DNA from: a virus
Reading direction: 5' to 3' (one strand)
Length of the DNA stretch: 64,000 nt
Virus record (IMG/VR): IMGVR_UViG_3300047546_001437
Location: 1-64,000 of that record
Part shown: piece by piece, positions 14,115 to 32,470 of the stretch
Layout of the letters: each line of letters begins with the position of its first letter
How positions within the stretch are numbered: the stretch's first letter is position 1
Made by a program: the position numbers and the translations under genes
Notes under the pieces: generated by a model
What the model saw: only the letters and a program-made list of their open reading frames with translations
Database searches by the model: none
What the model was told of the DNA's origin: nothing

Positions 14115-14996
14115 ATGGACAAAATATTTGTATCTATTGCATCTTATAGAGATCAAGAATTACTAGATACTGTTTTTTCTATTTTAAAACAAGCAAAAAA
14201 TCCAGAAAGACTATTTTTATCAATATTTTCTCAGGATGACAATCACCCAAATTTAGAACACTTGTTTGAGTTGTTTAACGTGAAACATTATGTTTATAAA
14301 AAAATACATTATAGCGATGCTCGTGGTGTTGGTTATGCTAGAGCAGAAACCCAAAAACCTTTAAATAATTCTTATAAATATTATTTACAAGTAGACAGTC
14401 ATACACAGTTTATTGAACACTGGGATGAAAAAATCGTAGATCATTACGAAAAGGCTATAGGGTATTGGGGAGACCTGATCTTTACAGCCTATCCAGGCAC
14501 CTATGAGTACACAGAAACAGGCAACCTAAAGTTTGCTACCGTTCTTGTTCCAACATGCCTTAGAATCCAACCTGCGACTGAAAACAGCCCAATCAGGTTT
14601 GAACCAAAATATAAGGACTATGTTGGCGGAGACATAGGTGAGTTTCATGGATATTTTTGTGCTGGTTTGGCTTTTGGATACTCTGAACATTTTTTAAAAG
14701 TTCCGTATGATGATCAAATTTATTTCAATGGAGAAGAGCAAACACTAGCAATAAGATTTTATTGTAATGACATTAAATTGGTTGCTCCACCATACAATTA
14801 TTGTTTTCATCATTATACTGGTAAAAAACGCATAAGACATTGGGAGCAAAGTGAAACCTGGAAAAAATATGATGAAATTGGTACAAAAAGATTAAATGAT
14901 TTTTACGAATATAAACTAGATGCCACATACGGTATTTCCAATAAAGAAAAGTACCATATGTGGCAATCTTGTTTTGTAACTCCTAGAGTTACTTAG
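14115..14996 (+). CDS. GT60 / Gnt1-like polypeptide GlcNAc transferase
   Basis: IFVSIASYRD, YYLQVDSH..F...WD, FCAGLAFG, VPYD..IYFNGEE motifs. Confidence 0.8.
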   Translation: MDKIFVSIASYRDQELLDTVFSILKQAKNPERLFLSIFSQDDNHPNLEHLFELFNVKHYVYKKIHYSDARGVGYARAETQKPLNNSYKYYLQVDSHTQFIEHWDEKIVDHYEKAIGYWGDLIFTAYPGTYEYTETGNLKFATVLVPTCLRIQPATENSPIRFEPKYKDYVGGDIGEFHGYFCAGLAFGYSEHFLKVPYDDQIYFNGEEQTLAIRFYCNDIKLVAPPYNYCFHHYTGKKRIRHWEQSETWKKYDEIGTKRLNDFYEYKLDATYGISNKEKYHMWQSCFVTPRVT

Positions 14997-15549
14997 GGAA
15001 TTTTTCCATCCACTGTTTTGTTCTTTGGGTTAGACCCTTCCAAGAACTCCAGTCCTGTCCTCCATTGGACATATGATATGCAATTTCTGCATTTATTACT
15101 GGATTAAATAAGTCTGCATTATGGTCTAACTCAAATTTGTCACGACGATCTAGACCAAGAACACCAAGCATATTAATCTGAAAGATACCATACGAACTGT
15201 CACCAGTTGAGATATTTCCGTTAAATGCTAGTGGACGACCATTACTTTCTTTTTTAGCAACAGCCCATGCCTCCTTTAGATTTTGACCTTCAAAGCCCAC
15301 TAACTTCAGTAGATTTTTTAGGTCTTTGTCAGATAGAGATGTAGCGTTTTGATATTTTTCTAACTGATCTTCTTTAGCCTTAGAAACGACTTTGGCCACT
15401 TCCGTGGCCTCTATTGTTTCTGTCAGCACGACACTAGTGCCGTCTAATCGGTTTTCAGAAGCATTAGCAGCGTTTGACCAAACGGCAAACATTGCCAATA
15501 TGCTGAGTGTACCAATGATTTGCCTGTTATTATTCATAAAGTTAATCAT
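14989..15549 (-). CDS. secreted lysozyme-like / SLT transglycosylase
   Basis: Signal peptide; catalytic KKES, SYGIFQIN, NP..NA, WSSW; AGGAGG SD before ATG 15549; TTGACA/TATACT promoter. Confidence 0.85.
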   Translation of the reverse strand: MINFMNNNRQIIGTLSILAMFAVWSNAANASENRLDGTSVVLTETIEATEVAKVVSKAKEDQLEKYQNATSLSDKDLKNLLKLVGFEGQNLKEAWAVAKKESNGRPLAFNGNISTGDSSYGIFQINMLGVLGLDRRDKFELDHNADLFNPVINAEIAYHMSNGGQDWSSWKGLTQRTKQWMEKFPK

Positions 15550-15661
15550 AGTTTCCTCCTTAGAAACGAATGACACCTTTTTAGGGGTGCCATGTTACTT
15601 CTTAGTATAACATAAATTTATTCTTATTGTCAAATACCTAAAAGTGGTATAATAAAACCAT

Positions 15662-19659: not shown

Positions 19660-21777
19660 ATGGCAACAAGAATGCAACAGCGCAGAGGAACTGCAGCACA
19701 ATGGACTGCAGCAAATCCAATTTTAGCAGCAGGAGAAATCGGATATGAAACCGACACTGGTAAATTTAAAATTGGTGACGGTACTAACACTTGGTCTCTC
19801 CTCAAGTACTTCCTTAACTTAGAAGCATTAGACATAGATGCAGAGGGCTTTATTACAGATGATCAAAAAGGCGTTAATAACGGTGTAGCAACACTAGACT
19901 CAAATGGTCTTGTTCCAGTTATACAGATGCCAGATCAATATATTACAGATAAAATTATTACAAAAATTGGAGAGGTTGTAGGGGCTGCCCCATCAACACT
20001 AAATACCCTTAATGAAATTGCAGCAGCATTTGACAACGATCCAAACTATGCAGATACAATTTCTGCAGCATTAGATTTAAAGGCACCAAAGGCAAGCCCA
20101 GCAATTACTGGAACAGCAACATTTGTAAATGCAACATTTAGTGGAGATGTAGATGTTCAAACTATGCCATTAAATGATAGTTCAACAAGACCTGCTACAA
20201 CTGCATATGTTTCAGGAAGAATTCAAAATGTTAATACAGTTATATCAACATTAGCATCAGAAATAGACGCAAGTCTTGAAACGCTTGGAGCAAACGATGC
20301 ATCACAGGCAAGTTCTTTAGAAGCGCTTGATGTTCGTTTAGATTCAGCAGAGGCATCAATTACTGGAAATACAGCATCAATTGCAACAATTAATACAACT
20401 CTATCTGACCATACATCAGATATATCAGCATTAGATGTAAGAGTTGACGCAACTGAGTCTGATATTTCTACAATTAATGCAGATATCACATCTATTGAAT
20501 CAAATATTGATACAGTAGAAGCAAATATAACAGGAATTCAAAGCGATGTAACAACATTGCAAAATGATTTAAATGCTGCAGAAACAGATATCTCAGCATT
20601 GCAATCAGGAGCAACAACTACAACATCAACTATTTCAACAATACAAAATAATCTTACATCAATGAGTACTGAAATAGATGGAATTGATACAAGATTAACA
20701 GCAGCCGAAACTGATATTGATGCACTACAAACAAGTGCTACATCAGCAAGTGGACATGCTTCTGCAACAACAAATGTTCATGGAATTGCAAATACAGCAG
20801 ATCTTGCAACAAAGTCTTATGCAGATAATGCTAAGACTGAGGCAATTTCTACTTCAGCAACAGCAATTGCCTTAAAGGCAGATATTGCTTCTCCAACATT
20901 TACTGGAACAGTAGTTCTTCCAGCAACAACATCTATCGGAACAGTATCTGCAACAGAGATCGGATATGTTGATGGTGTAACATCAGCAATTCAAACTCAG
21001 TTAGATGCAAAGGCTCCTTTGGCATCACCAGCATTAACTGGTACACCAACTGCTCCTACCGCTACTGCTGGTACCAATACTACTCAGGTAGCAACTACAG
21101 CATTCGTTAAGACTGCCGTTGATAATGTAGTAGCAGCAGCACCTGGTGCACTAGATACTCTTAATGAGTTAGCAGCAGCACTTGGTAATGATGCAAACTT
21201 CTCAACAACATTAACAAACAATTTAGCAGCAAAGGCACCACTTGCTTCTCCAACATTTACTGGAACAGTAACATTGCCTTCATCTACAAGTATTGGAAAT
21301 GTTAGTTCAACAGAAATTGGCTATATTGATGGTGTAACGTCATCAATCCAGACACAATTAGATGCAAAAGCACCTTCTGCAAGTCCAACACTTACAGGAA
21401 CAGTTGCTCTTCCAGCAGCATCTTCTGTAACTTTAAATGGTACAGCACTCTCAACAACATTGGCTCTTAAGGCAGATAATGCAGCAACAATTAACACTAT
21501 GAGTGGTTCACACACAATTGTTTCTGCAGATGTTAGCAACGTACGTGAAATGAGCAATGGAGGAACAATTACAATTCCTTCAGACAACTCTTTCTGGCCA
21601 GTAGGAGCAACCATGGATGTTATTCAAACTGGTTCTTCACAAGTAACAATCGGAGCAGGATCTGGAGTAACATTAAATGCTACACCAGGACTTAAACTTC
21701 GTGCACAATGGTCTTCTGCAACAATTCTTAAGAGAGCAGCAAATACATTCGTTGCTCTTGGCGACTTGTCAGCATAA
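19660..21777 (+). CDS. tail fibre with major-tropism-determinant-like N-terminus
   Basis: QRRGTAAQW..NPILAAGEIGYETDTGKFKIGDG; coiled coil; KAPLASPxFTG repeats. Confidence 0.85.
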   Translation: MATRMQQRRGTAAQWTAANPILAAGEIGYETDTGKFKIGDGTNTWSLLKYFLNLEALDIDAEGFITDDQKGVNNGVATLDSNGLVPVIQMPDQYITDKIITKIGEVVGAAPSTLNTLNEIAAAFDNDPNYADTISAALDLKAPKASPAITGTATFVNATFSGDVDVQTMPLNDSSTRPATTAYVSGRIQNVNTVISTLASEIDASLETLGANDASQASSLEALDVRLDSAEASITGNTASIATINTTLSDHTSDISALDVRVDATESDISTINADITSIESNIDTVEANITGIQSDVTTLQNDLNAAETDISALQSGATTTTSTISTIQNNLTSMSTEIDGIDTRLTAAETDIDALQTSATSASGHASATTNVHGIANTADLATKSYADNAKTEAISTSATAIALKADIASPTFTGTVVLPATTSIGTVSATEIGYVDGVTSAIQTQLDAKAPLASPALTGTPTAPTATAGTNTTQVATTAFVKTAVDNVVAAAPGALDTLNELAAALGNDANFSTTLTNNLAAKAPLASPTFTGTVTLPSSTSIGNVSSTEIGYIDGVTSSIQTQLDAKAPSASPTLTGTVALPAASSVTLNGTALSTTLALKADNAATINTMSGSHTIVSADVSNVREMSNGGTITIPSDNSFWPVGATMDVIQTGSSQVTIGAGSGVTLNATPGLKLRAQWSSATILKRAANTFVALGDLSA

Positions 21778-21816
21778 AACAGTAGTATAATTTAAAAAAT
21801 AAGGAGATTGATCTAG

Positions 21817-22944
21817 ATGGCACTATCAAGAGGTAAAGGTGGAAGAAACATTAGAAAGGCGTCGGTGCCTTCCTTTGACCAAACATATACAAGAAGTTCA
21901 TACCAATCATATTTATCAAGCATTGGTCTGTTTTATTCAGAAAACTCTACCAACACCTCTGATAGTGGTCTAGATCAGCGCTGGAATTCACAAAATATTG
22001 CTCCAGGTACAGTAGTTCCATTTGGAACAACTATTGGTATTAATTACTACATTTATGTATACCCTGGTTTTAGCCATTATGGTGGTTTCTATCATGGCTT
22101 CTATCATGGATTTGGTCACTATGCTGGATTTACACACTATGCAGCATTTAGCCACTATGCTGGTTTCACACACTATGCAGCATTTGGACACTATGCAGCA
22201 TTCGGACACTATGCAGCATTCGGACACTATGCTGGATTCTATCATGGTTTCTATCACTCATTTGCACACTATTCTTCATTTGCACACTATTCTTCATTTG
22301 CACACTACGCAAACTTTAGCCACTACTATAGTGGATTCTCTCATGGTTATGGCGGATTCGGACATGGTTATGGCGGATTCGGACATGGTTATGGCGGATT
22401 CTATCATGGATTCGGACACGGTTATGGCGGATTCGGACACTACGGTGGCTTTGGTGGTGGCGGAGGTGCCAGAGGCTACTCAATTGGTGGAGAAACTGGT
22501 CTATTAAGTCCAACAGGAGTTATCTTGGCTGAAAACTTAAAGGTAGGAGACAAGTTATTAGCACTAGATATTTCAGAAATAGATATGGCTGGATTTAATC
22601 CTTCACAATGGTCTTCAGAAACAATATCTGGAAACGGTATAGTAGAGACAACAGTAGTATCAATTAATAGCAGAGTCTCAGATCGTGCTATTGTTATAAA
22701 TGGAGATATTTACTCTATACATCACTGGATCTTAGCAAGAAAAGATGGCGTTATTAGATTCGTAAGTTCTTCAGACATAGATACAACATATGAAGTTTAT
22801 AACTTCCAGACTCTAGACTGGGTCGAGGTTCAGTCTGCTGAAAGTATCGCTTACATTGATAGAGTTTATACAATTAACTGTGAGCCTTACGATATGTTCT
22901 TTACTAACTCAATGTTAGTATATGACCGAGTAGAAACTGACTAA
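21817..22944 (+). CDS. F-x-H / His-Tyr-Gly repeat protein with N-terminal PASTA-like and C-terminal Hint-like domains
   Basis: About 22 F-x-H units; SIGGET..AENLKVGDKLL...VYTINCEPYDMFFTNSMLVYD resembles a Hint fold. Confidence 0.8.
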   Translation: MALSRGKGGRNIRKASVPSFDQTYTRSSYQSYLSSIGLFYSENSTNTSDSGLDQRWNSQNIAPGTVVPFGTTIGINYYIYVYPGFSHYGGFYHGFYHGFGHYAGFTHYAAFSHYAGFTHYAAFGHYAAFGHYAAFGHYAGFYHGFYHSFAHYSSFAHYSSFAHYANFSHYYSGFSHGYGGFGHGYGGFGHGYGGFYHGFGHGYGGFGHYGGFGGGGGARGYSIGGETGLLSPTGVILAENLKVGDKLLALDISEIDMAGFNPSQWSSETISGNGIVETTVVSINSRVSDRAIVINGDIYSIHHWILARKDGVIRFVSSSDIDTTYEVYNFQTLDWVEVQSAESIAYIDRVYTINCEPYDMFFTNSMLVYDRVETD

Positions 22945-22945
22945 T

Positions 22946-23692
22946 TTGGCCAGACTACCCAATCACGATTACTATTCTGATGAGTGGGCAAACGAACCAT
23001 TCATAATACCTGATCAATTATTGGCATTACAGCAAAAAAGAATTGGCAGTGCAACACCATATAGCATAAGCCCTCAAATTGCAACATTTACTAGAAAGTA
23101 TAGTGAAAAAATACAAAATGCTCCAGATCACGATGCTGTAGAATTTGCAAAATATGAGGTAGATTGGCAAAAAGAATATCGTGAGCAAAAACATTTATTT
23201 GTTCCGCAAAATCGATGGGCACATGAAGTTGTTGAGCCACCAGTTCACATAAAAGATAATTTATACAAAATAAATGTATCTGCTGATGTTTATCCACATT
23301 TAGAACCTTTAGAGCATCAGTATGAAGAATCTGGAACAATCATACGTGAAAAAGAATATAGGTTTATTACTAGAACACTTTATAAGTATGTGGATGCTAC
23401 AAAAAATGTTGTTTTGGAAAAGGATTTAGATCCAGAGTGGTGTTCGAGAGTTTATGTTTGGAAAATTAGATGGCTACCACAAAAACCAGCAGTTTTAACA
23501 TTTTTTTCAAATGAGGATATGGTATACTGGAAGACACCAGAAACAATAGTTGATACAAAAGATATTGCAGAAGATGCACAAGGAGTGATAGACGTGCCAG
23601 TTATATTTAAAAAAGGACTTAAGCGCAGTATGCACTACATAAAGCATGATACAACAATACTATATATGAAGGTAGATTTTCATGAAGAATAA
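22946..23692 (+). CDS. hypothetical protein in the putative modification cluster
   Basis: ORF track; coupled to neighbours; weak resemblance to the C-termini of the next two genes. Confidence 0.75.
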   Translation: MARLPNHDYYSDEWANEPFIIPDQLLALQQKRIGSATPYSISPQIATFTRKYSEKIQNAPDHDAVEFAKYEVDWQKEYREQKHLFVPQNRWAHEVVEPPVHIKDNLYKINVSADVYPHLEPLEHQYEESGTIIREKEYRFITRTLYKYVDATKNVVLEKDLDPEWCSRVYVWKIRWLPQKPAVLTFFSNEDMVYWKTPETIVDTKDIAEDAQGVIDVPVIFKKGLKRSMHYIKHDTTILYMKVDFHEE

Positions 23693-24398
23693 AACAAACA
23701 TTATAACATTTATACCTAAAAATGAATTTGTTATAGAGTATACAGATAAACCAGAACCTATGATAAAAAATCTTCCTTCTTGGTGGAGAAAGGTTCATCC
23801 ATATGTTAATGGAGAAAAAACTTTACGTAATGGTCAATATAGTGAGACTGTAAAAAAGTGTCCTGGAATATTAGATTTGCTATCTACAGGATATTTATTA
23901 AAAACACCATGCGATATTTTTCTAGATGCAACTGGACCAAAACTAGATTGGCAAGTTCACCATGCACACAAAGAATCTGTTACAGTTCATTCTCAACCAC
24001 AAGTTGAAGGCTGGGATTTTGACAAAAATGATTGGATGGAAGATATATTTAGAATTCATCCAATGTGGGTAGTAGCAACAGAAAAAGGTTATAGTACTTT
24101 ATTTGTGCAGCCATCATTTCATACAAGCCTACCATTTGAAATAGTTCCAGCAATTATTGATACAGACATGTATCCTTCAGATGGACCATTCTCTATGAGA
24201 GTTAAAAGAGGCTTTAAAGGTGTCCTAGAGGCAGGAACTCCACTAGTTCAATGTATTCCTTATAGAAGAGAAAAGTGGGAAGCAAATATACTTGAAAAGC
24301 CAGATTTGAAAGTTTTAAACTCTATACCTTGGAAATTAAGGCATAAGTTTGGCGGGGCATACAAAAAACTTATGTGGGAAAAGAAGGTGTTTAATTAA
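23682..24398 (+). CDS. conserved phage hypothetical protein (TVKKCPG..D...GY family)
   Basis: Paralog of 24398-25159: LPxWW, KxC, GYxLxxPxD, LPF, GTPxxxxIPxxR. Confidence 0.8.
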   Translation: MKNKTNIITFIPKNEFVIEYTDKPEPMIKNLPSWWRKVHPYVNGEKTLRNGQYSETVKKCPGILDLLSTGYLLKTPCDIFLDATGPKLDWQVHHAHKESVTVHSQPQVEGWDFDKNDWMEDIFRIHPMWVVATEKGYSTLFVQPSFHTSLPFEIVPAIIDTDMYPSDGPFSMRVKRGFKGVLEAGTPLVQCIPYRREKWEANILEKPDLKVLNSIPWKLRHKFGGAYKKLMWEKKVFN

Positions 24399-25159
24399 TG
24401 GATAAATTTGAAGAAAGATATGCAAACCCAGAACCACTTGAAAATTTAAAGGTTCAGTTTTATACATCTAATGCATATGTAAATACAACTCCTGGTCCAG
24501 TGCCAGCAATTGACAATCTTCCAGAATGGTGGAAGGATCGTCCTATATATCAAAAAAATGATCAAATTGATAGACTATCTATCATGAATAATCGTGGTGC
24601 AGATGCTGCATCAATTAGTGTAAAGCATTGTATGCCATTTTTTGATGCAATAACTTGTGGATATCATTATTTATTGCCAACAGATGTTCATGTTGCAAAA
24701 ACAGAAGACCCAGATAGACCAGATATTTGGTGGGATGAAGATGCTCCAAGACCAATTGAGATGCGTGGTCATTTAGAGTTACCAGTTCCATCTGGATGCT
24801 ATCCAATTCATTTTGTTTGGGATATGAGATGGGGAACAAAGATGCCAGACGGATGGTCTGCAATGATCACACACCCTATAGACAGATATGATTTACCATT
24901 CTTTACTATGACAGCCATACAGGATTCTGACAGATGGTTTACTGGAAACGTTGTTACCTTCTTTTTAAGAAAAGATTTTGAAGGTACAATTAAAAAGGGT
25001 ACACCAATAATGTCAATTATTCCAATAAAAAGAGCAAACTGGAATATGGAAATAGACCATTCCCTACAAACTGAGGGTTTATGGGATCTTGAAAGAAAAA
25101 GAAATTACATTTATGGATTTTATAAAAAACATAGATGGATCAGAAAGAAATATAGATAG
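24398..25159 (+). CDS. conserved phage hypothetical protein, paralog of 23682-24398
   Basis: Same motif series. Confidence 0.8.
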   Translation: MDKFEERYANPEPLENLKVQFYTSNAYVNTTPGPVPAIDNLPEWWKDRPIYQKNDQIDRLSIMNNRGADAASISVKHCMPFFDAITCGYHYLLPTDVHVAKTEDPDRPDIWWDEDAPRPIEMRGHLELPVPSGCYPIHFVWDMRWGTKMPDGWSAMITHPIDRYDLPFFTMTAIQDSDRWFTGNVVTFFLRKDFEGTIKKGTPIMSIIPIKRANWNMEIDHSLQTEGLWDLERKRNYIYGFYKKHRWIRKKYR

Positions 25160-25167
25160 GATAAATA

Positions 25168-25830
25168 ATGGAAAAACATTACGAATATGGTGATGCTAAT
25201 CAACCAAGTAATAGCAAGTCTACTAAAGAGCATAAATTCTTCGATAGAAATATAGAGATTAATAATCTTGAACAACTTGAGAAATTATTAATTACTCAAT
25301 ATGAAAGAATTAATCGTGGAGAGATTATTAAGGGGAACAAAAATGAGCATACCCCTTGGGATCAATCTGGTAGTGCAACTACAATAAATTGGAATAAGTA
25401 TAATGTCTTTCAATTCTATGATGAGAATATCTATACTCTTTTCAGAGCGGTAAGAGACATGACAGTTGATGCTTGTCAGCATTATGAATTAGATTTTATA
25501 AAAGAACAATTTTATGTTCAGGGATGGTTCAATGTTAACTATAACCATATTGGAAAGTTAGATTGGCATGAACATGGTGGAGAAGGTGCACCACATTTCC
25601 ATGGCTATTATTGTGTAAAGGCAGAGCCATCTAAAACTCATTATAGAGTTTTTGAAAAAGAAATTGAAGTAAATAATAAAAATAACCGTGCCATTCTTTC
25701 AGAAACTGGCCATCCTCACGCAATGGGTGACTGGGATTGGGATGGACCAAGAATCACAATAGCATATGACGTAATTCCACTAAGATTTATACCAAAAGAG
25801 TGGGAACAACACTGGATACCACTAATCTAA
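25168..25830 (+). CDS. putative 2OG-Fe(II)/cupin-fold oxygenase (HxH type)
   Basis: GWFNVN...WHEH...GYYCV...H...RITIAYD double-stranded beta-helix pattern. Confidence 0.7.
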   Translation: MEKHYEYGDANQPSNSKSTKEHKFFDRNIEINNLEQLEKLLITQYERINRGEIIKGNKNEHTPWDQSGSATTINWNKYNVFQFYDENIYTLFRAVRDMTVDACQHYELDFIKEQFYVQGWFNVNYNHIGKLDWHEHGGEGAPHFHGYYCVKAEPSKTHYRVFEKEIEVNNKNNRAILSETGHPHAMGDWDWDGPRITIAYDVIPLRFIPKEWEQHWIPLI

Positions 25831-25840
25831 GGAGGAAGTT

Positions 25841-25954
25841 ATGGACGTAAGAATAGAAATTGCTGGTCAATATCAGTTCACTGTTATTAAAGAACTAGCA
25901 GATCTTCTGGCTAAAGAATGCCCAGATACAGTTAAACTTGTCATTGAGGAATAA
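25841..25954 (+). CDS. hypothetical 37-aa protein
   Basis: AGGAGG SD; MDVRIEIAGQYQFTVIKELADLLAKECPDTVKLVIEE. Confidence 0.6.
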   Translation: MDVRIEIAGQYQFTVIKELADLLAKECPDTVKLVIEE

Positions 25955-25957
25955 TTA

Positions 25958-26299
25958 ATGCGTATAGCATCTTTAACTTTCTTAATGCTATTAGTATCTT
26001 TGATGGTAGGTTTAGTGATCTATAAATATACTATAGACACAAGACTTACCATTAAAGAACTAAAAAAAGATCGTGATACCTATAGAAATAATATTTGGAA
26101 TTTCATGAAGGGTATGGATAAAGAAAGAAAACGTATGGAACAAATAAATGAACAAACAAATAATTTGGCCTATACTAATTTAAAGAAAAAGATTAAAAAA
26201 CTTCATGATGACATAGAGGATACAGATTTTACAACTTTTGAAAATGTAAAAGAAGAAATTTTGTCTTCATTAAAGGATATAGACTCATATGGCGATTAG
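25958..26299 (+). CDS. single-TM coiled-coil protein
   Basis: Hydrophobic N-terminus. Confidence 0.7.
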   Translation: MRIASLTFLMLLVSLMVGLVIYKYTIDTRLTIKELKKDRDTYRNNIWNFMKGMDKERKRMEQINEQTNNLAYTNLKKKIKKLHDDIEDTDFTTFENVKEEILSSLKDIDSYGD

Positions 26300-26492
26300 T
26301 ATTAAAATAAACAAAGATTGCCAGGCTTGGGGTCAATGTGTATTTGATGCTCCAGAAGTATTTGATTTAGTTGAAAGTGAAAGAAAGACCTGGAAGTATG
26401 TTGTAGATGATTCTCTTTTAGAAAAAGTAAAGATGGCTCATTCTCATTGTCCAAATAGAGCAATTTCTTTCGAGGTGCTTAAAGATGAATAA
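26289..26492 (+). CDS. single-cluster (3Fe-4S-type) ferredoxin
   Basis: CQAWGQC...APEVF...CPNRAI. Confidence 0.8.
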   Translation: MAISIKINKDCQAWGQCVFDAPEVFDLVESERKTWKYVVDDSLLEKVKMAHSHCPNRAISFEVLKDE

Positions 26493-26601
26493 AATTAAAT
26501 GTTTAATTTTTGGTCACAGAATTGAAGAATCTTCTTGTCCATATACAATGAGGACATATCAAACCTGCATCCGTTGTGGATCTAAAGGTATTAAGTCTTA
26601 A
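26485..26601 (+). CDS. 38-aa Cys/His-rich protein
   Basis: MNKIKCLIFGH...CPYT...CIRCG. Confidence 0.55.
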   Translation: MNKIKCLIFGHRIEESSCPYTMRTYQTCIRCGSKGIKS

Positions 26602-26690
26602 CAATAAACATAAACAGTAAGTTGAGAGTTTACAAAAATTAAAAACTCTGCTATACTTACTCAATCACAGTTTTTAAAAAGGAGAAACAC

Positions 26691-28721
26691 GTGTCAGATT
26701 TTTTTAGTTTTCGTTTGCCAGATGAGTTCATTAATGAGTATAAAGACAAGGAGTCGCCTTTTGGTTTTATAGACGCTGGTGGTAACTCATTAGGAGAGAT
26801 TACCTTTATTAGAACCTACTCAAGAATGAAGGAAGACGGAACTAAAGAGCGTTGGCACGAAGTTTGTCGTCGTGTAATCGAAGGTATGTATTCAGTACAA
26901 AAGAATCATGCTAAGGAAAACAGACTACCTTGGAATGACTATAAGGCTCAGAAGTCAGCACAAGAAGCATTCCAAAGAATGTTTGAATTAAAGTGGACAC
27001 CACCAGGTCGTGGTATGTGGGCATTTGGAACCCCTATGACCATGGAGAAAAAGAACTCTGCAGCATTACAAAACTGTGCCATGGTTTCAACAAAGGACCT
27101 TGACAAGAATGATCCAGGAGCATTATTTGCTTGGGTTATGGACGCATTGATGCTTGGCATTGGTGTAGGGTTTGACACAGTAGGACAGGATAAGAATTTT
27201 CATATTTATGCACCTACAGAGCCAATTGTCACCTATGAAATACCAGACACACGTGAGGGCTGGGTTGAATCAGTTCGTCTTCTCTTGAACTCATTCCTTA
27301 GACCAAATCAAAATATACAGGAATTTAATTATGATCTAATACGTCCACTGGGAGCACCCATTAAGGGCTTTGGAGGGGTTGCTAGTGGCCCAGAACCATT
27401 AATTAGGTTACACAACAACATACGCACCGTCATTGGCTCTAGAAATGGCGAGACGCTTGATTCTAGGGCTATTGTTGATATTGTTAATTTAATTGGAACA
27501 TGTGTTGTGGCAGGAAATGTTAGAAGGTCTGCAACACTTGCCCTTGGTTCTTCTGGAGACGAAAATTTTATTAATTTAAAAAATCCAGAAATGTTTCCAG
27601 AACGAAACTCCTTTGACCCAGAAAATCCAGGTTGGGCATGGATGTCAAATAATTCTATATCTGCAACAGTTGGAACAAATTATGAACAATATGTTGACAG
27701 AATAGTAGATAACGGAGAGCCAGGATTTATCTGGCTTGATGTAGCAAGAAACTATGGCAGACTTAAGGATGCGCCAGACGGTAAGGATTATAGAGTTATG
27801 GGCTTTAATCCTTGTGCAGAGCAGCCACTAGAGTCATACGAACTCTGTACACTTGTAGAAGTACATTTAAATCGTCATGAATCCAAGGAAGACTTTTTGC
27901 GTACCCTTAAGTTTGCCTATCTTTATGGCAAAACAGTAACTCTTGTACCAACACATTGGCAACAGACAAATGGAATTATGCAACGAAATCGTCGTATCGG
28001 TACATCACTTACTGGTATCGCATCATTCTCTGATAAAAATGGTTTGCCAACAGTTCGTGAATGGATGGATGAGGGATATAATACAATACGTAAATATGAT
28101 CATCAATATTCAGAATGGCTATGTGTGCGTGAGTCAATTCGTGTAACGACAGTTAAGCCTTCGGGTTCAGTATCAATTCTTTCTGGTGCAACCCCTGGGG
28201 TACATTGGGGTCCAGGAGGAAACTTCTTCCTTCGTGCAATTAGATTTGGTGAAACAGATCCAATGATGCACCTATTTAAGGCTGCAGGTTATAAAATAGA
28301 AAAAGACCTGGTTTCAGCAAATACATCAGTTGTATATTTTCCAGTAAAATCTGGACATGCAAGATCAGAAAAAGATGTAACATTATTTGAAAAGATTGCT
28401 CTTGCAGCAACCGCTCAAAAATATTGGTCAGATAATGGTGTTTCTGTAACATTATCCTTTGATAAGGAAACAGAGTCAAAGCATGTCGCACCAGCACTAC
28501 ACATGTATGAAGGACAACTAAAGGCTGTTTCTTTCCTACCCATGGGCAACACGGTATATCCACAACAACCGTATACACAAATAACAGAGCAAGAATATAA
28601 TGAATATATTGGAAAAATCAAGAAAATTGATTGGTCTGCAATATATGACGGTGTAGATAATCTAGAGGCTCAAGGCGAGGCTTACTGCACAACAGATGCT
28701 TGCGAAATAAAAATCTCGTAG
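26691..28721 (+). CDS. nrdJ: class II (adenosylcobalamin-dependent) ribonucleotide reductase
   Basis: PPGRG, ALQNC, VAGNVRRSA, NPCAE, TTVKPSG, C-terminal CTTDAC. Confidence 0.95.
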   Translation: MSDFFSFRLPDEFINEYKDKESPFGFIDAGGNSLGEITFIRTYSRMKEDGTKERWHEVCRRVIEGMYSVQKNHAKENRLPWNDYKAQKSAQEAFQRMFELKWTPPGRGMWAFGTPMTMEKKNSAALQNCAMVSTKDLDKNDPGALFAWVMDALMLGIGVGFDTVGQDKNFHIYAPTEPIVTYEIPDTREGWVESVRLLLNSFLRPNQNIQEFNYDLIRPLGAPIKGFGGVASGPEPLIRLHNNIRTVIGSRNGETLDSRAIVDIVNLIGTCVVAGNVRRSATLALGSSGDENFINLKNPEMFPERNSFDPENPGWAWMSNNSISATVGTNYEQYVDRIVDNGEPGFIWLDVARNYGRLKDAPDGKDYRVMGFNPCAEQPLESYELCTLVEVHLNRHESKEDFLRTLKFAYLYGKTVTLVPTHWQQTNGIMQRNRRIGTSLTGIASFSDKNGLPTVREWMDEGYNTIRKYDHQYSEWLCVRESIRVTTVKPSGSVSILSGATPGVHWGPGGNFFLRAIRFGETDPMMHLFKAAGYKIEKDLVSANTSVVYFPVKSGHARSEKDVTLFEKIALAATAQKYWSDNGVSVTLSFDKETESKHVAPALHMYEGQLKAVSFLPMGNTVYPQQPYTQITEQEYNEYIGKIKKIDWSAIYDGVDNLEAQGEAYCTTDACEIKIS

Positions 28722-28741: not shown

Positions 28742-31700
28742 ATGTCTAGTCCATCAAATCTATATGCAGAAAAGGTATTTTCGGAACATCCGACAGTTCT
28801 TTGGGCATTGGACGATCAGGCAGACTACATATCTTTAATATCTGAAAATGATCGTAAAGTATACAACTGGACAGTAACTGGCGGAACTGCAACATTAGAG
28901 CCTTCTATTGTAGACGAACCATTTCCACTATCTGCAACAACAAAGTTGGTAGGAAATGTAACAACTGAAGACTATTCTAAGGTTGTATGTGTCAGCAATG
29001 ATGTGTTTAATTTAGAAGATCTCAATACCTATATGGGAACATTTTCTATAGGATCTTATGTGTACTCTGACAGCCCCTATATTTCTGGTATTGAAATTGG
29101 ATATCAGTATTATGATGAAACAACTGCATCTATTGTAGAAAAATTAAAAAATTATGGAACTTCTGTTTATGGAAGATGGATATTTGTATCTGAGACATTT
29201 AATATACCATCTGAGATAGCAGCAGTAAAATTGGTTATAAAAATTAACTATATTGGTGGAGCAGAATCCACAGACGACTATGTATTTTTTGTTAATGGTG
29301 TTACTGCTGGTCAATGGTCAGAAGAATTTAACTCTAGTTCTCTTGGATCAAACAAGATCGCTCTTCCATCAACAATAGCACTAGACCCATCATTTGTCAT
29401 AGAAGCATTGTCATATGGTTTGCAAGAAACTCCTGGTTATTATTTTATAAACGATAACTCATTAGTTGCAAAAAATTCTGGTATACCAATTGTATATGGA
29501 TCAAGCAATACAACTATTCTATATCCTAATAACAACAAGCCATCATTAATAATTCCTGGTTATGGGTTCTTAAACAATTCTGGTAAATTTAAAGAATATA
29601 CAGTAGAAATGTGGCTAAGAGTAAACTCTGATTCATTTACAAGAAAAAGAATTTTTGGGCCAATAGCATCAACAGACGGACTATATGTTGAGGGACCGTT
29701 TATATTATTAAAAATTGGTAATAATTTTGCATCACATTATATTGGAGAATGGACAAGGCCCATGATTGTTCATATTAAATATAGTAACAATACTGCCTCA
29801 TTAATGATTAATGGGGAAGAAGTTATATCGTTAAATATTATTACATCAGATCTTTCTTTTCCAGATATACTTTCAGACCAGGGAAAGACTCAAGATTGGT
29901 TGGGCTTTTACGCTTACGAAGATGTAACCCCAATAGAGGTTGACTGTGTATCTATTTATTCTTATCCAGTTCCATCTTTAGTTGCAAAAAGAAGGTTTGT
30001 ATACGGACAAGGAGTCGAGGTACCAGAAAATATTAATGCATCATATAGTGGAACATCTATGTTTATAGATTATCCTTTTGCCGATTATGCAAATAACTAT
30101 ATGTATCCAGACCTTGGATCTTGGTCTCAGGCATCTATAGACAACCTATCTGTTAATAAAAATTTTTTAACAACTAAAGAATACTCTTTGCCAGAAATAT
30201 TTTTAAGTAATAAAACAACAGAAGAGTTGTATGCTGCATGTAAGAATCTTCCAACAGAAGATAACTTATATCTAAGACTTAAGCCAGCAGGCTGGGATAC
30301 TACAACTGGCTACTTACTGTTTAATGATATTTCATTGCTAACATCTTCAAAGGCATTTTATGGTATCTTTAAAGCATTGAATGTTAGCGGAACCAAAATT
30401 TTATTTAGAATAGACAACTCAGTTACAAAAGAATATTTCAGTATTGAACTTGTTCCAAGCACAACTGCTTCTGGAAATGAAATAAAGTATTTACATAAAT
30501 ATGAAAAGGTTCAGGAAAATGGATCTGTAGTTGATCAGATAGATGTTATATATACTTCAAATCCGATATCTGTCGGCGAGGACTTTGTTGCTGGAATTGA
30601 TGTACCAACTTTTATTTCTGGTTTTGGAGGAAGGTTAACATCATTTTTTGGTAATCTTTCTTCAGCAAAATTATATGTAGGTGGTTGTAAAGAATTAACT
30701 AACACTTTTGATGGAAATATTTATCATGTTGGATTTTGTAGTAGCAAAAACTTTTTACCAATTTCGCACGTCTTTAATTCTACATTAGGAATTCCAGCAG
30801 ATTTTGAAAATATCTTCAACCTATATTCCTCTCAAGTAGACTATGATGCTGGAGAATATTATGGAACCAATCAATATTTTTGGCTATATATATTAGATGG
30901 AGGATCTCCAACATCTTTTGCAAGCAATACATTAGATCTTCATACTGCAAGTTATACACTTTCACCAGTTCTTGATTTTAACAAGTTTTCTTTAGGTATA
31001 GATATCCAGGGAACCTGGGAAGATCAAATACCGCTTTCTTATTTTGCAAAGTATGTAACAGATGCAAGAGGTGATTCATACTACGATTTAGATTTTATAC
31101 AGTTTAATTTAAATTATCCAGCACCATCAATATTTTTAGAACAAGAAACAGAAGGTACATGGAATTACGGAGAACTACACTCTGAGTATTCAAACCCAAT
31201 TCTAAGAACGTATGAGTCGTTAGATAATCATCTATTTACAGGATACCTTAATTACGAAGATTTAGAAAATAGATCTCAAAAAAATTATAAATACGATACG
31301 TCAAATTCTTTGGTTAAGTCATACATAACATTTCAGTATATAGCAACAGGTGCTAATGCACCAGATTCATTTTTTATAAACAAAGAACTAGCACCAAAAA
31401 ATGGAATCATTGATCCACAAGATGACTGGGTTCAAACAAAATATGAGATTGTAGACAATATGCTTATATATCCACCAAAGGGTGCAAAGTTTGAGGACTT
31501 GTCTATTGTTGTAGAACTAAACTTTAAGGTTAAGAATATTTTAAAGAATAAGGTTCAAGTTAAAAAATTACAACTTGCTTCTCAGGCATTTAATGATGTA
31601 TCCCCAAATGAAATTGGAACAAGATTTGCTGTACCAATTTATCCTTATAGGAAAACTGGGTTTTACTATGATTTTAAAAATCAAAATCCTTTTACTATAT

Positions 31701-32470
31701 ACAAGGGAAGTTCTCCATATCTTTATTTAACAAGATATTCTGGCATTCAGGTTCGTGGTCAATATGACCCAGTTATAAATAGAGGAATATTTGTTCCCAT
31801 AAATCCTGGATCTGCATCAAATTATAAAGTGATGGCTATGCAAGCAGCAATTAGATTTGATGAAGACTTTTTCCCATATGCACCAACACAAATCTTTGAA
31901 ATAGAAGGCAAGGATAATCTAATTAAATTTTTTATGGTTGCATCACATCCAGACGGAAAGAGAGCAAGAATATATGCAATTAATGCAAAGACTGGACAAG
32001 TGGAAGAGGGCATAGGATTTTATCTAAATGGAAAAATAGTCAAGGATCCAACAATAACTGTTAAAGAATGGTCTATGCTTGGTATTTCATTTTCTAGTTT
32101 ATTAGATTTTAATAACTATGTTGGTTCTATTAAAATCAATGGGCCTCTTCTTGTTAATCTTGTTTCGCATTATAAATCAACTAACCTTCAGGAAGTTCAA
32201 AATGTTATAGAAAGGCCATGGTTTAGGGTTAAAAGAGACGGCGGGTTACAGTTTGACTGGCAGTACTGGGAGTCTGCATATATTTGGCAGGGTGTATTGG
32301 TCCTATCAACAACATCTTATTATGGTGTAAAACCATCAGATATTTATAAAAGTTATACAGGAACCAATAAAATTATAGTTGACGATACAAGAGAGTTTAG
32401 GCTAAACTCGTATCAATATAAGGTCTATGCAGATATTTCATGGCAGTCAAAGATCCAAAATGCCGTATAG
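28742..32470 (+). CDS. large virion structural protein with LamG/ConA-like segment
   Basis: 1242 aa; EHP..LWALD N-terminus; YTVEMWLR. Confidence 0.7.
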   Translation: MSSPSNLYAEKVFSEHPTVLWALDDQADYISLISENDRKVYNWTVTGGTATLEPSIVDEPFPLSATTKLVGNVTTEDYSKVVCVSNDVFNLEDLNTYMGTFSIGSYVYSDSPYISGIEIGYQYYDETTASIVEKLKNYGTSVYGRWIFVSETFNIPSEIAAVKLVIKINYIGGAESTDDYVFFVNGVTAGQWSEEFNSSSLGSNKIALPSTIALDPSFVIEALSYGLQETPGYYFINDNSLVAKNSGIPIVYGSSNTTILYPNNNKPSLIIPGYGFLNNSGKFKEYTVEMWLRVNSDSFTRKRIFGPIASTDGLYVEGPFILLKIGNNFASHYIGEWTRPMIVHIKYSNNTASLMINGEEVISLNIITSDLSFPDILSDQGKTQDWLGFYAYEDVTPIEVDCVSIYSYPVPSLVAKRRFVYGQGVEVPENINASYSGTSMFIDYPFADYANNYMYPDLGSWSQASIDNLSVNKNFLTTKEYSLPEIFLSNKTTEELYAACKNLPTEDNLYLRLKPAGWDTTTGYLLFNDISLLTSSKAFYGIFKALNVSGTKILFRIDNSVTKEYFSIELVPSTTASGNEIKYLHKYEKVQENGSVVDQIDVIYTSNPISVGEDFVAGIDVPTFISGFGGRLTSFFGNLSSAKLYVGGCKELTNTFDGNIYHVGFCSSKNFLPISHVFNSTLGIPADFENIFNLYSSQVDYDAGEYYGTNQYFWLYILDGGSPTSFASNTLDLHTASYTLSPVLDFNKFSLGIDIQGTWEDQIPLSYFAKYVTDARGDSYYDLDFIQFNLNYPAPSIFLEQETEGTWNYGELHSEYSNPILRTYESLDNHLFTGYLNYEDLENRSQKNYKYDTSNSLVKSYITFQYIATGANAPDSFFINKELAPKNGIIDPQDDWVQTKYEIVDNMLIYPPKGAKFEDLSIVVELNFKVKNILKNKVQVKKLQLASQAFNDVSPNEIGTRFAVPIYPYRKTGFYYDFKNQNPFTIYKGSSPYLYLTRYSGIQVRGQYDPVINRGIFVPINPGSASNYKVMAMQAAIRFDEDFFPYAPTQIFEIEGKDNLIKFFMVASHPDGKRARIYAINAKTGQVEEGIGFYLNGKIVKDPTITVKEWSMLGISFSSLLDFNNYVGSIKINGPLLVNLVSHYKSTNLQEVQNVIERPWFRVKRDGGLQFDWQYWESAYIWQGVLVLSTTSYYGVKPSDIYKSYTGTNKIIVDDTREFRLNSYQYKVYADISWQSKIQNAV

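Follow-up and report, generated by a model that had tools for sequence, protein, structure and literature searches.

We analysed a repeat-containing gene in the virus record IMGVR_UViG_3300047546_001437, a 72.7-kb IMG/VR sequence with an estimated completeness of 67%; the first 64 kb of this record (G+C content, approximately 36%) make up the whole stretch of DNA studied here, hereafter referred to as the window. The gene (21817–22944, plus strand) encodes a protein of 375 amino acids (aa), in which a PASTA-like head, a tract of F-x-H units and a Hint domain follow one another, and its C-terminus matches the family phrog_38766, ‘virion structural protein’, at an E value of 3.2e-6. Several fibre-like genes are located at 11–22 kb, and the last of these (19660–21777, plus strand), directly upstream of the repeat gene, encodes a 705-aa tail-fibre protein with an Mtd_N-type N-terminus (Pfam Mtd_N, E 3.1e-15; many PHROG tail-fibre families, best 6.8e-41). 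The repeat gene is followed by six tightly packed genes (22946–26492), a class II ribonucleotide reductase (RNR), a gene for a 1242-aa protein, and then the portal, protease, capsid and tail genes. An earlier note on this DNA had described a 375-aa gene directly after an Mtd-like fibre, and both genes are present as described. That note took the gene as the precursor of a modification cluster resembling those for ribosomally synthesized and post-translationally modified peptides (RiPPs). We lean, with somewhat better than even confidence, towards a partly different overall reading, in which the product is a protein of the fibre module that carries a self-cutting Hint cap and is accompanied by an enzyme cassette matched to its tract.

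The repeat tract (aa 85–208; 22069–22440) consists of exactly 22 F-x-H(Y) units, where the earlier note had given about 22 units at 22069–22445. Counted over 128 aa from the first unit, a stretch that extends 4 aa beyond the last one, the composition is 32 G, 23 F, 23 Y, 22 H, 15 A, 10 S, 2 T and 1 N, so that Pro and charged residues are absent throughout. The units had been called codon-diversified. This is correct in that F, H, G, A and S are each encoded by several codons, but it does not extend to the whole tract, since Tandem Repeats Finder also detected arrays at the DNA level: two with 100% identity (period 18, 2.8 copies, 22258–22307; period 21, 2.9 copies, 22342–22401) and a third with 80% identity (period 18, 6.8 copies, 22110–22232). 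The identical arrays indicate that part of the tract arose by recent duplication. Among 234 family members, 38 carry at least 4 F-x-H units, and the number of units in these varies from 5 to 26. The F-x-H tract thus expands and contracts by repeat slippage, while its composition is strictly kept.

The segments on both sides of the tract were assigned by alignment. The head (aa 1–84; 21817–22068) was named PASTA-like in the earlier note. Pfam gave no match for the window protein itself, including none to PF03793 (PASTA) for aa 1–84, but PF03793 was matched by 12 of 21 aligned relatives, with a best E value of 5.1e-9. We therefore regard the head as a divergent homologue of PASTA-bearing proteins, and not as a demonstrated PASTA domain. 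Between the tract and the Hint domain is a linker and junction (aa 209–221; 22441–22479) that contains the predicted poly-Gly segment, five Gly residues within FGGGGGARGY, and ends at Tyr221, the residue before the predicted scissile bond in the junction alignment.

Relatives of the protein numbered 31 in the full-length range and 230 in viral contigs, and 80 loci (designated by L numbers) were kept for comparison. The common plan is a head, a low-complexity tract and a Hint domain; the head is PASTA, FN3 or of another type, and at the position of the F-x-H(Y) tract, relatives carry FFPP, FGFTP, FGAFG, FSPFGV, PPYYNPP, NPGF, VIIAEP or poly-Pro tracts. Within this large phage family, the repeat tract is the part that is hypervariable. 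At 69 of the 80 loci, the Mtd_N fibre has a homologue located upstream of the Hint gene. Some relatives show the opposite order, with the Hint gene ahead of the fibre genes (L046, 496–2250; L062, 6109–7011). Among isolated phages, relatives were found in only five Erwinia/Dickeya jumbo-phage records, with the match restricted to the Hint part, and the scan of prokaryote genomes gave one match, on a 9.6-kb contig of a metagenome-assembled genome that does not allow inference of a host.

The C-terminal part of the protein (aa 222–375; 22480–22944) had been called Hint-like, and this assignment was borne out at the superfamily level. A phmmer search with aa 211–375 against 1.8 billion representatives detected 161 proteins at E≤1e-3, and the match was nearly always C-terminal. 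A family profile with the window sequence placed first matched the bacterial intein-like (BIL) domain 2lwy in the PDB at E 1e-10, and ten more intein or Hint chains at E≤1e-4, the inteins ranging from 1e-7 to 1e-4. The window domain also reaches canonical Cys...His-Asn members by phmmer (E 1e-4 to 1e-7). Distant members of this kind have Cys1 after a Gly run and a His-Asn end, and give sub-threshold matches to Pfam PT-HINT, Intein_splicing, Hint and Hint_2. In the alignment, Ser222 corresponds to the canonical Cys1 and S300-x-x-H303 to the canonical block B, while the domain ends at Y369-D370, followed by five residues (RVETD) and the stop codon. Judged by these sequence comparisons, aa 222–375 are a genuine Hint-superfamily domain.

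The residues at the presumed active site were then counted over 234 distinct aligned family proteins, 164 of which have a readable junction. The Ser1 class makes up 122 of the 164; block-B His is present in all 122, an Asp end in 106 and a His-Asn end in none. Cys1 is found in 32 of the 164, of which 28 have the His-Asn end, and at the block-B site the 32 carry His (23 proteins), Gln (7) or Glu (2). Position 1 is Trp in 7 proteins, none of which retains block-B His, and the remaining three are singletons. Ser1 and block-B His are therefore lost only jointly, as would be expected if the two form a working catalytic pair, and autoprocessing by the Hint domain, as anticipated in the earlier note, is likely, with a probable role at the N-terminal end of the domain. 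Splicing inteins are inserted in a conserved host protein and have a C-terminal His-Asn followed by a +1 Cys, Ser or Thr, while the window domain ends in Tyr-Asp; likewise, the His-Asn end of type A BIL domains is found in 28 of the 32 Cys-class relatives, but not in the window. Its architecture is that of Hog-type proteins, a terminal Hint domain placed after an unrelated N-terminal cargo, and we infer that it is a cleavage-only, Hog-like cap.

Based on these features, the gene would encode a three-part accessory protein of the tail-fibre module, of which the head, a small PASTA-like domain replaced by FN3 in relatives, is probably a binder of the host surface. The cap keeps the residues used in the first step of intein chemistry, the predicted nucleophile Ser222 and block-B His303, without the terminal His-Asn, and the likeliest mechanism would begin with an N-to-O acyl shift at Tyr221|Ser222; the ester formed would then be hydrolysed or transferred, which would free the head and tract from the Hint cap, a detachment that would resemble Hedgehog processing or the release of self-cleaving C-terminal chaperone domains of phage fibres.

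A catalytically silent domain would account for some of the same observations. It could serve as a conserved module that docks the protein onto the virion, perhaps by way of the preceding fibre, so that the head and tract stay attached as a flexible, outward-facing adhesin. Conservation within the protein is highest in the Hint domain, while heads and tracts are swapped; the terminal His-Asn has been lost; and the domain is retained in a subclade without Ser1 and block-B His (7 proteins; L094), implying some use beyond catalysis. A search for long contigs of this degenerate-Hint F-x-H subclade recovered only known loci from viral contigs and two short contigs (1.8 and 3.5 kb) from metagenomes, leaving L094 as the only usable locus. 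However, Ser1 and block-B His occur together in 122 of 122 Ser-class members and disappear only jointly, as a functional catalytic pair would, and the lack of a block-G end is compatible with activity, as type B BIL domains cleave despite having no block-G similarity (PMC4031507). We therefore consider a silent domain unlikely and retain the self-cutting cap as the preferred reading.

Comparison with known systems places the cap between several of them. BIL domains are the closest by profile search, 2lwy being the best solved relative of the family profile. As described in PMC4031507, BIL domains occur in variable proteins, have no C-flanking nucleophile and for the most part cleave instead of splicing; type A domains end in His-Asn and mostly cleave, while type B domains, without block-G similarity, only cleave. 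The Cys-class relatives resemble type A in their end. The window class differs from BIL domains in having Ser1 instead of Cys, an [F/H/Y]-Asp end and an extreme C-terminal position (the median tail beyond the Hint domain is 5 residues in the family), and the window domain is also phage-encoded and placed directly after a low-complexity tract behind fibre genes. A sterol-recognition region after the Hint core is a feature of Hedgehog/Hog proteins. The window protein differs in lacking this region, since only five residues follow the Hint core, and in having Ser as its nucleophile. It resembles Hedgehog/Hog in the combination of an N-terminal cargo with a terminal Hint domain, and probably also in its logic, in which the first acyl shift suffices and a nucleophile from outside resolves the ester (PMC4031507). 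The predicted detachment would resemble that of the peptidase S74 chaperone domains of phage fibres and spikes, which are placed at the C-terminus of fibre proteins with much low-complexity sequence, aid in their folding and then cut themselves off (PMC7824862), but the fold and chemistry of these domains are unrelated, with a Ser-Lys dyad in place of the Hint domain. The relatives found among isolated phages are Dickeya phage vB_DsoM_AD1 gp108 (L085, 2984–4423) and its Erwinia jumbo-phage homologues (phrog_38766), in which repeats are likewise followed by a terminal Hint domain and the gene is located among tail genes; gp108 carries the annotation ‘virion structural protein’. These proteins differ in having a long collagen-like G-x-y region and a canonical Hint domain (Cys1, terminal His-Asn), and the identity to the window protein is 27–28% over the Hint part alone.

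The earlier note had proposed comparing the repeat residue type with the adjacent enzyme family, and we examined the genes located between the Hint gene and RNR. At the FFPP locus L077, eight of the nine open reading frames (ORFs) scanned in this interval match the prolyl-hydroxylase-type family PF13640 (2OG-FeII_Oxy_3; 2OG, 2-oxoglutarate), seven of them above the cut-off, and one matches DUF6065. At the FFPP-type loci L077 (3630–10763), L056 and L075, this interval holds 8–9 tandem PF13640 genes along with a true DUF6065 gene, and PF13640 genes are likewise present in the Pro-rich loci L026, L062 and L070. Local hidden Markov models built from the genes of L077, L026, L062 and L070 detected 132 PF13640-type ORFs over the 80 loci but none in the window, and the Pfam model detected none in the whole 72.7-kb record.

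The correlation covered those 59 loci whose downstream sequence spans at least 6 kb, and Pro content was measured over the 60 residues that precede the Hint domain. All 22 loci with 0–5% Pro have no PF13640-type gene; the number is 0–1 in 13 loci with 5–16% Pro, 0–2 in seven loci with 16–26% Pro and 1–9 in 17 loci with more than 26% Pro. The Spearman coefficient between Pro content and downstream PF13640 count was 0.89 (n=59 related loci), and it was 0.82 in the 40 loci without an F-x-H tract, 0.88 over 45 distinct tracts and 0.81 over 11 Hint-protein clusters at 50% identity (p 0.002). The fractions of His, Phe, Gly and Tyr in the tract showed no significant correlation with the PF13640 count. 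Thus, the cassette between the Hint gene and RNR varies in its 2OG-oxygenase content in correlation with the Pro content of the tract. As Pro-rich tracts are accompanied by prolyl-hydroxylase-type genes and Pro-free tracts by none, the tract is probably an enzyme substrate in this family, and the existence of a matched enzyme cassette is likely.

The Pro-free F-x-H tract of the window has a different set of neighbours: an orphan protein, two proteins of dUTPase-like fold, a PF13759-like 2OG oxygenase, a small membrane-type protein and a ferredoxin, as predicted from sequence and models. The first is a gene for a 248-aa protein (22946–23692, plus strand), the unknown gene reported by the earlier note, and this gene is real. 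Its TTG start codon is located 1 nucleotide past the stop codon of the Hint gene, and the motifs NRW-x-HE, SRTLY, RWLP and KHD are conserved. The protein gave no match to Pfam, PHROG or the PDB (profile search with alignment A6), and its family comprises only 24 clusters, none of which is annotated by Pfam. Its identity as a third paralogue of the two proteins encoded next to it was considered and rejected (hhalign probability, 27.7% over 40 columns). Prediction of a complex between the repeat-Hint and orphan proteins (score 0.01, mark 0.32) gave no evidence either way.

The next two genes encode proteins of 238 aa (protein a; 23682–24398, plus strand; phrog_7084, 5.2e-40) and 253 aa (protein b; 24398–25159, plus strand; phrog_7084, 4.9e-27; alignment A3). 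They are 24% identical, in line with the report of two paralogous unknowns. Protein a, the only one of the two that was modelled, gave an AlphaFold2 (AF2) model with a predicted local distance difference test (pLDDT) score of 90.1, for which the top Foldseek matches in the PDB were dUTPases (E from 3e-4). With VIA, the value of Z was 10.8 at a root-mean-square deviation of 4.2 over 121 aligned residues; 209 of 999 chains had Z≥8, and all 50 entries listed were dUTPases. The named matches in BFVD at E≤1e-3 were mostly (viral) dUTP diphosphatases. The invariant residues of the family are I-I-D160-x-D162 and G185-T-P-x-x-Q, which we take to resemble dUTPase motifs III and IV, and no Gly-rich C-terminal motif was seen. 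Pfam gave no match for any of 34 family members in alignment A3, including none to dUTPase or DUF6065, and the PDB profile search with this alignment gave nothing useful. The DUF6065 model (PF19541) had no match in the whole record; phrog_7084 and the true DUF6065 genes of related loci gave an hhalign probability of 35.6%, and DUF6065 was present in 12% of members of the look-alike Atlas clusters. Hence phrog_7084, a family of ‘unknown function’ until now, models as a dUTPase-like fold. This is not a known peptide-tailoring fold, nor one that a model of peptide tailoring would predict, and the inclusion of the two paralogues among the modification genes in the earlier note is not upheld.

The fourth gene (25168–25830, plus strand; 220 aa) had been reported as an HxH cupin/2OG-Fe(II)-type oxygenase. 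The fold part of this assignment stands, while no Pfam 2OG-oxygenase match was obtained: neither the protein nor its 14 relatives (alignment A4) matched Pfam, and the PDB profile search gave nothing useful. The AF2 model (pLDDT 85.3) matched 236 PDB chains at E≤1e-3 by Foldseek, of which those listed were almost all 2OG oxygenases; the top matches were the prolyl hydroxylases 6t8m (from Dictyostelium; the best) and 4iw3, followed by 3bvc and 2rg4. In the look-alike Atlas clusters, PF13759 was found in 79% of members (score 0.96). The protein thus models as a double-stranded beta-helix 2OG oxygenase and is probably PF13759-like. Of 15 aligned members, 12 retain H134 and H184, presumably part of the metal-binding triad, and R195-I-T follows. 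A tblastn search with this protein against isolated phages gave no match. The remaining two genes encode a small protein of 113 aa (25958–26299, plus strand) with a hydrophobic N-terminus, a coiled-coil-like remainder and a weak match to the Rz-like spanin family phrog_739 (4.1e-5), and a 67-aa ferredoxin with a single 4Fe-4S cluster (26289–26492, plus strand; Pfam Fer4_13, E 7.1e-6). The latter scored 27.1 bits against a cut-off of 24.5, in agreement with the ferredoxin predicted in the earlier note. The downstream boundary of the variable cassette is the class II (B12-dependent) RNR (26691–28721, plus strand; RNR_Alpha, 1.2e-31; RNR-II_ins_dom, 2.8e-14; phrog_367, 3.9e-145), which was found at 58 of the 80 related loci. 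Its position between the fibre and head modules is odd for a gene of nucleotide metabolism.

Several of these genes are specific to F-x-H loci. The orphan gene is present at 23 of 23 F-x-H loci versus 0 of 56 others, and L094, with a distant F-x-H gene and a degenerate Hint domain, still carries the orphan gene and phrog_7084 downstream. Two copies of phrog_7084 are found in 19 of 19 F-x-H loci and 0–1 copies elsewhere, while the 113-aa protein (20 of 80 loci) and the ferredoxin (21 of 80) are confined to the F-x-H clade. Since this set belongs to one clade, common descent explains the co-occurrence equally well, and descent and function are inseparable here. The term modification cluster used in the earlier note is partly borne out: it holds well at the family level for Pro-rich tracts, and for the His/aromatic tract only by analogy with these and by clade-bound co-occurrence. 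Chemical modification of the His/Tyr tract in the window may occur, as may the virion display and metal binding suggested in that note.

Some observations weigh against the combination of a self-cutting cap with a tract-matched cassette. The conservation of Ser1 and block-B His could be structural. The relation to Pro content has exceptions, in that L035 lacks a PF13640-type gene despite 20% Pro and L041 carries only 2; the loci represent related phages with few independent events, as 11 clusters are left at 50% identity. FGAFG-type loci are without any oxygenase, and the PF13759-like oxygenase, which also occurs with FSPFGV, FGFTP and NPGF tracts and is absent with FGAFG, FFPP and PPPF tracts, has no clear link to any residue type. 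The F-x-H-specific set of the orphan gene, second phrog_7084 copy, small protein and ferredoxin is confined to one clade, across which RNR is 84–100% identical to that of the window where it is reached (it is absent from L025). Finally, phrog_7084, the constant neighbour, is dUTPase-like in its fold, is adjacent to RNR both here and in Halorubrum phage HF2 (L082, 4899–5783), and may belong to nucleotide metabolism.

Because of this fold, the downstream block was first read as a nucleotide-metabolism island. In its full form, this alternative states that the repeat gene encodes a plain fibre-module protein with an unmodified F-x-H tract, and that 22946–28721 (dUTPase-fold proteins, ferredoxin, an orphan 2OG oxygenase and class II RNR) is an island of auxiliary or nucleotide-metabolism genes that happens to separate the fibre module from the head module. 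The distribution of phrog_7084 fits such a view. It is the commonest neighbour of the Hint gene, found at 50 of 66 loci having at least 4 kb downstream, but at 16 of the 66, the Hint gene is present without it. It also occurs in 55 isolated-phage records, from haloarchaeal tailed viruses and cyanophages, none of which contains the Hint protein. Furthermore, it is kept near RNR and apart from the Hint gene in L026, L046 and L059, and the genes specific to F-x-H loci come from a single clade. Against this view, the orphan gene is exclusive to F-x-H loci and translationally coupled to the Hint gene. A chance neighbourhood is also difficult to reconcile with the PF13640-type count, which tracks tract Pro even among proteins sharing FN3 heads and Hint caps, or with the PPPF-type loci (L062 and relatives), in which the oxygenase and DUF6065 genes accompany the Hint gene at a distance from RNR. 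In L062, PF13640 and DUF6065 genes have moved along with the Hint gene, while in L046 phrog_7084 remains beside RNR. Since enzyme content follows tract composition, the island of unrelated genes was demoted to a rival explanation, which we regard as unlikely. In Synechococcus phage syn9, phrog_7084 (L083, 3839–4627) comes after two genes resembling tryptophan halogenases.

With the tract-matched cassette retained as the preferred explanation, the proposal of a RiPP can be considered in its strict sense, namely a precursor with a repeat core that undergoes tailoring and excision to yield small modified peptides. The locus shares with RiPP clusters a ribosomal product whose repeated segment is encoded beside tailoring-type enzymes, including a gene of oxygenase fold, and the type of enzyme in the family co-varies with the type of residue; the Hint domain could in addition provide a protease-like release module. 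In contrast to such clusters, there is no leader/core organization, and the product is a multi-domain structural-module protein of 375 aa and three domains, in which the tract is placed between two conserved folded domains. Pfam and PHROG searches of the neighbours revealed no RiPP recognition element, dedicated protease or transporter, and Hint chemistry would make a single cut at the C-terminal end of the tract without releasing units. A RiPP in the strict sense is thus very improbable. The nearest precedent for the Pro-rich family members and their PF13640 genes is the prolyl 4-hydroxylase of chlorovirus PBCV-1; the window differs from this system as it contains neither a PF13640 gene nor tract Pro, and its oxygenase is PF13759-like. 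According to a review, hydroxyproline was not detected in PBCV-1 virions.

A more far-reaching model, which we consider doubtful at present, is a Hedgehog-like maturation. In this model, a clade-specific enzyme set would oxidize or cross-link the His/Tyr/Phe tract, and the Hint ester at Tyr221|Ser222 would serve, beyond cleavage, to link the modified, sticky His-aromatic tail, along with the wall-binding head, covalently to either a virion protein or the host envelope. Each type of tract (Pro-rich, FG-type or F-x-H) would then have its own matched chemistry. Candidate enzymes may be the orphan 248-aa protein, with its conserved His, Glu, Asp and Arg motifs, the PF13759-like 2OG oxygenase and the ferredoxin.

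In the genomes of aquatic phages, genes for 2OG-Fe(II) oxygenases are widespread, mostly without a known substrate. The family described here offers a concrete candidate substrate for such enzymes, a hypervariable tract followed by a probably self-cutting Hint cap, with a number of hydroxylase-type genes that follows its Pro content. The window represents a His/aromatic, Pro-free variant of this arrangement with a different set of neighbours, including the exclusive orphan protein. Modification of the tract, if it takes place, would add a novel type of surface chemistry to phages and extend the natural uses of the Hint domain beyond inteins and Hedgehog. A further outcome of the modelling is a dUTPase-like fold for phrog_7084, which is common to haloarchaeal viruses and cyanophages. 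In the literature searched for this architecture, for DUF6065 and for phage prolyl hydroxylases with Pro-rich repeats, which covered few subscription journals, we found no description of the repeat-Hint architecture; two phage papers recovered by the search concern ordinary terminase inteins, and not the repeat-Hint architecture.

With regard to the rest of the record, a megablast search of 21000–27000 against isolated phages gave no match, and the single match to WhiB in the whole record was under the cut-off. The 1242-aa ORF between RNR and the portal gene (28742–32470, plus strand) has no Pfam or PHROG match, and homologues were found at 38 of the 80 related loci. Upstream, within the region of fibre-like genes, a 293-aa protein (14115–14993, plus strand) matches Pfam PF11397, ‘Glycosyltransferase (GlcNAc)’, at E 1.6e-36. 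Together with the prolyl-hydroxylase-like ORF at 25168–25830, this gene would form a pair reminiscent of the hydroxyproline-glycosylation pathway of Skp1. Across the loci, a GT60-type glycosyltransferase and the oxygenase were both present in 10, the glycosyltransferase only in 4 and the oxygenase only in 35, many loci stopping short of the glycosyltransferase position. The adjacent gene (14989–15576) is located on the minus strand amid a block of plus-strand genes, and matches the lysozyme-like Pfam family SLT_3 at E 6.3e-15.

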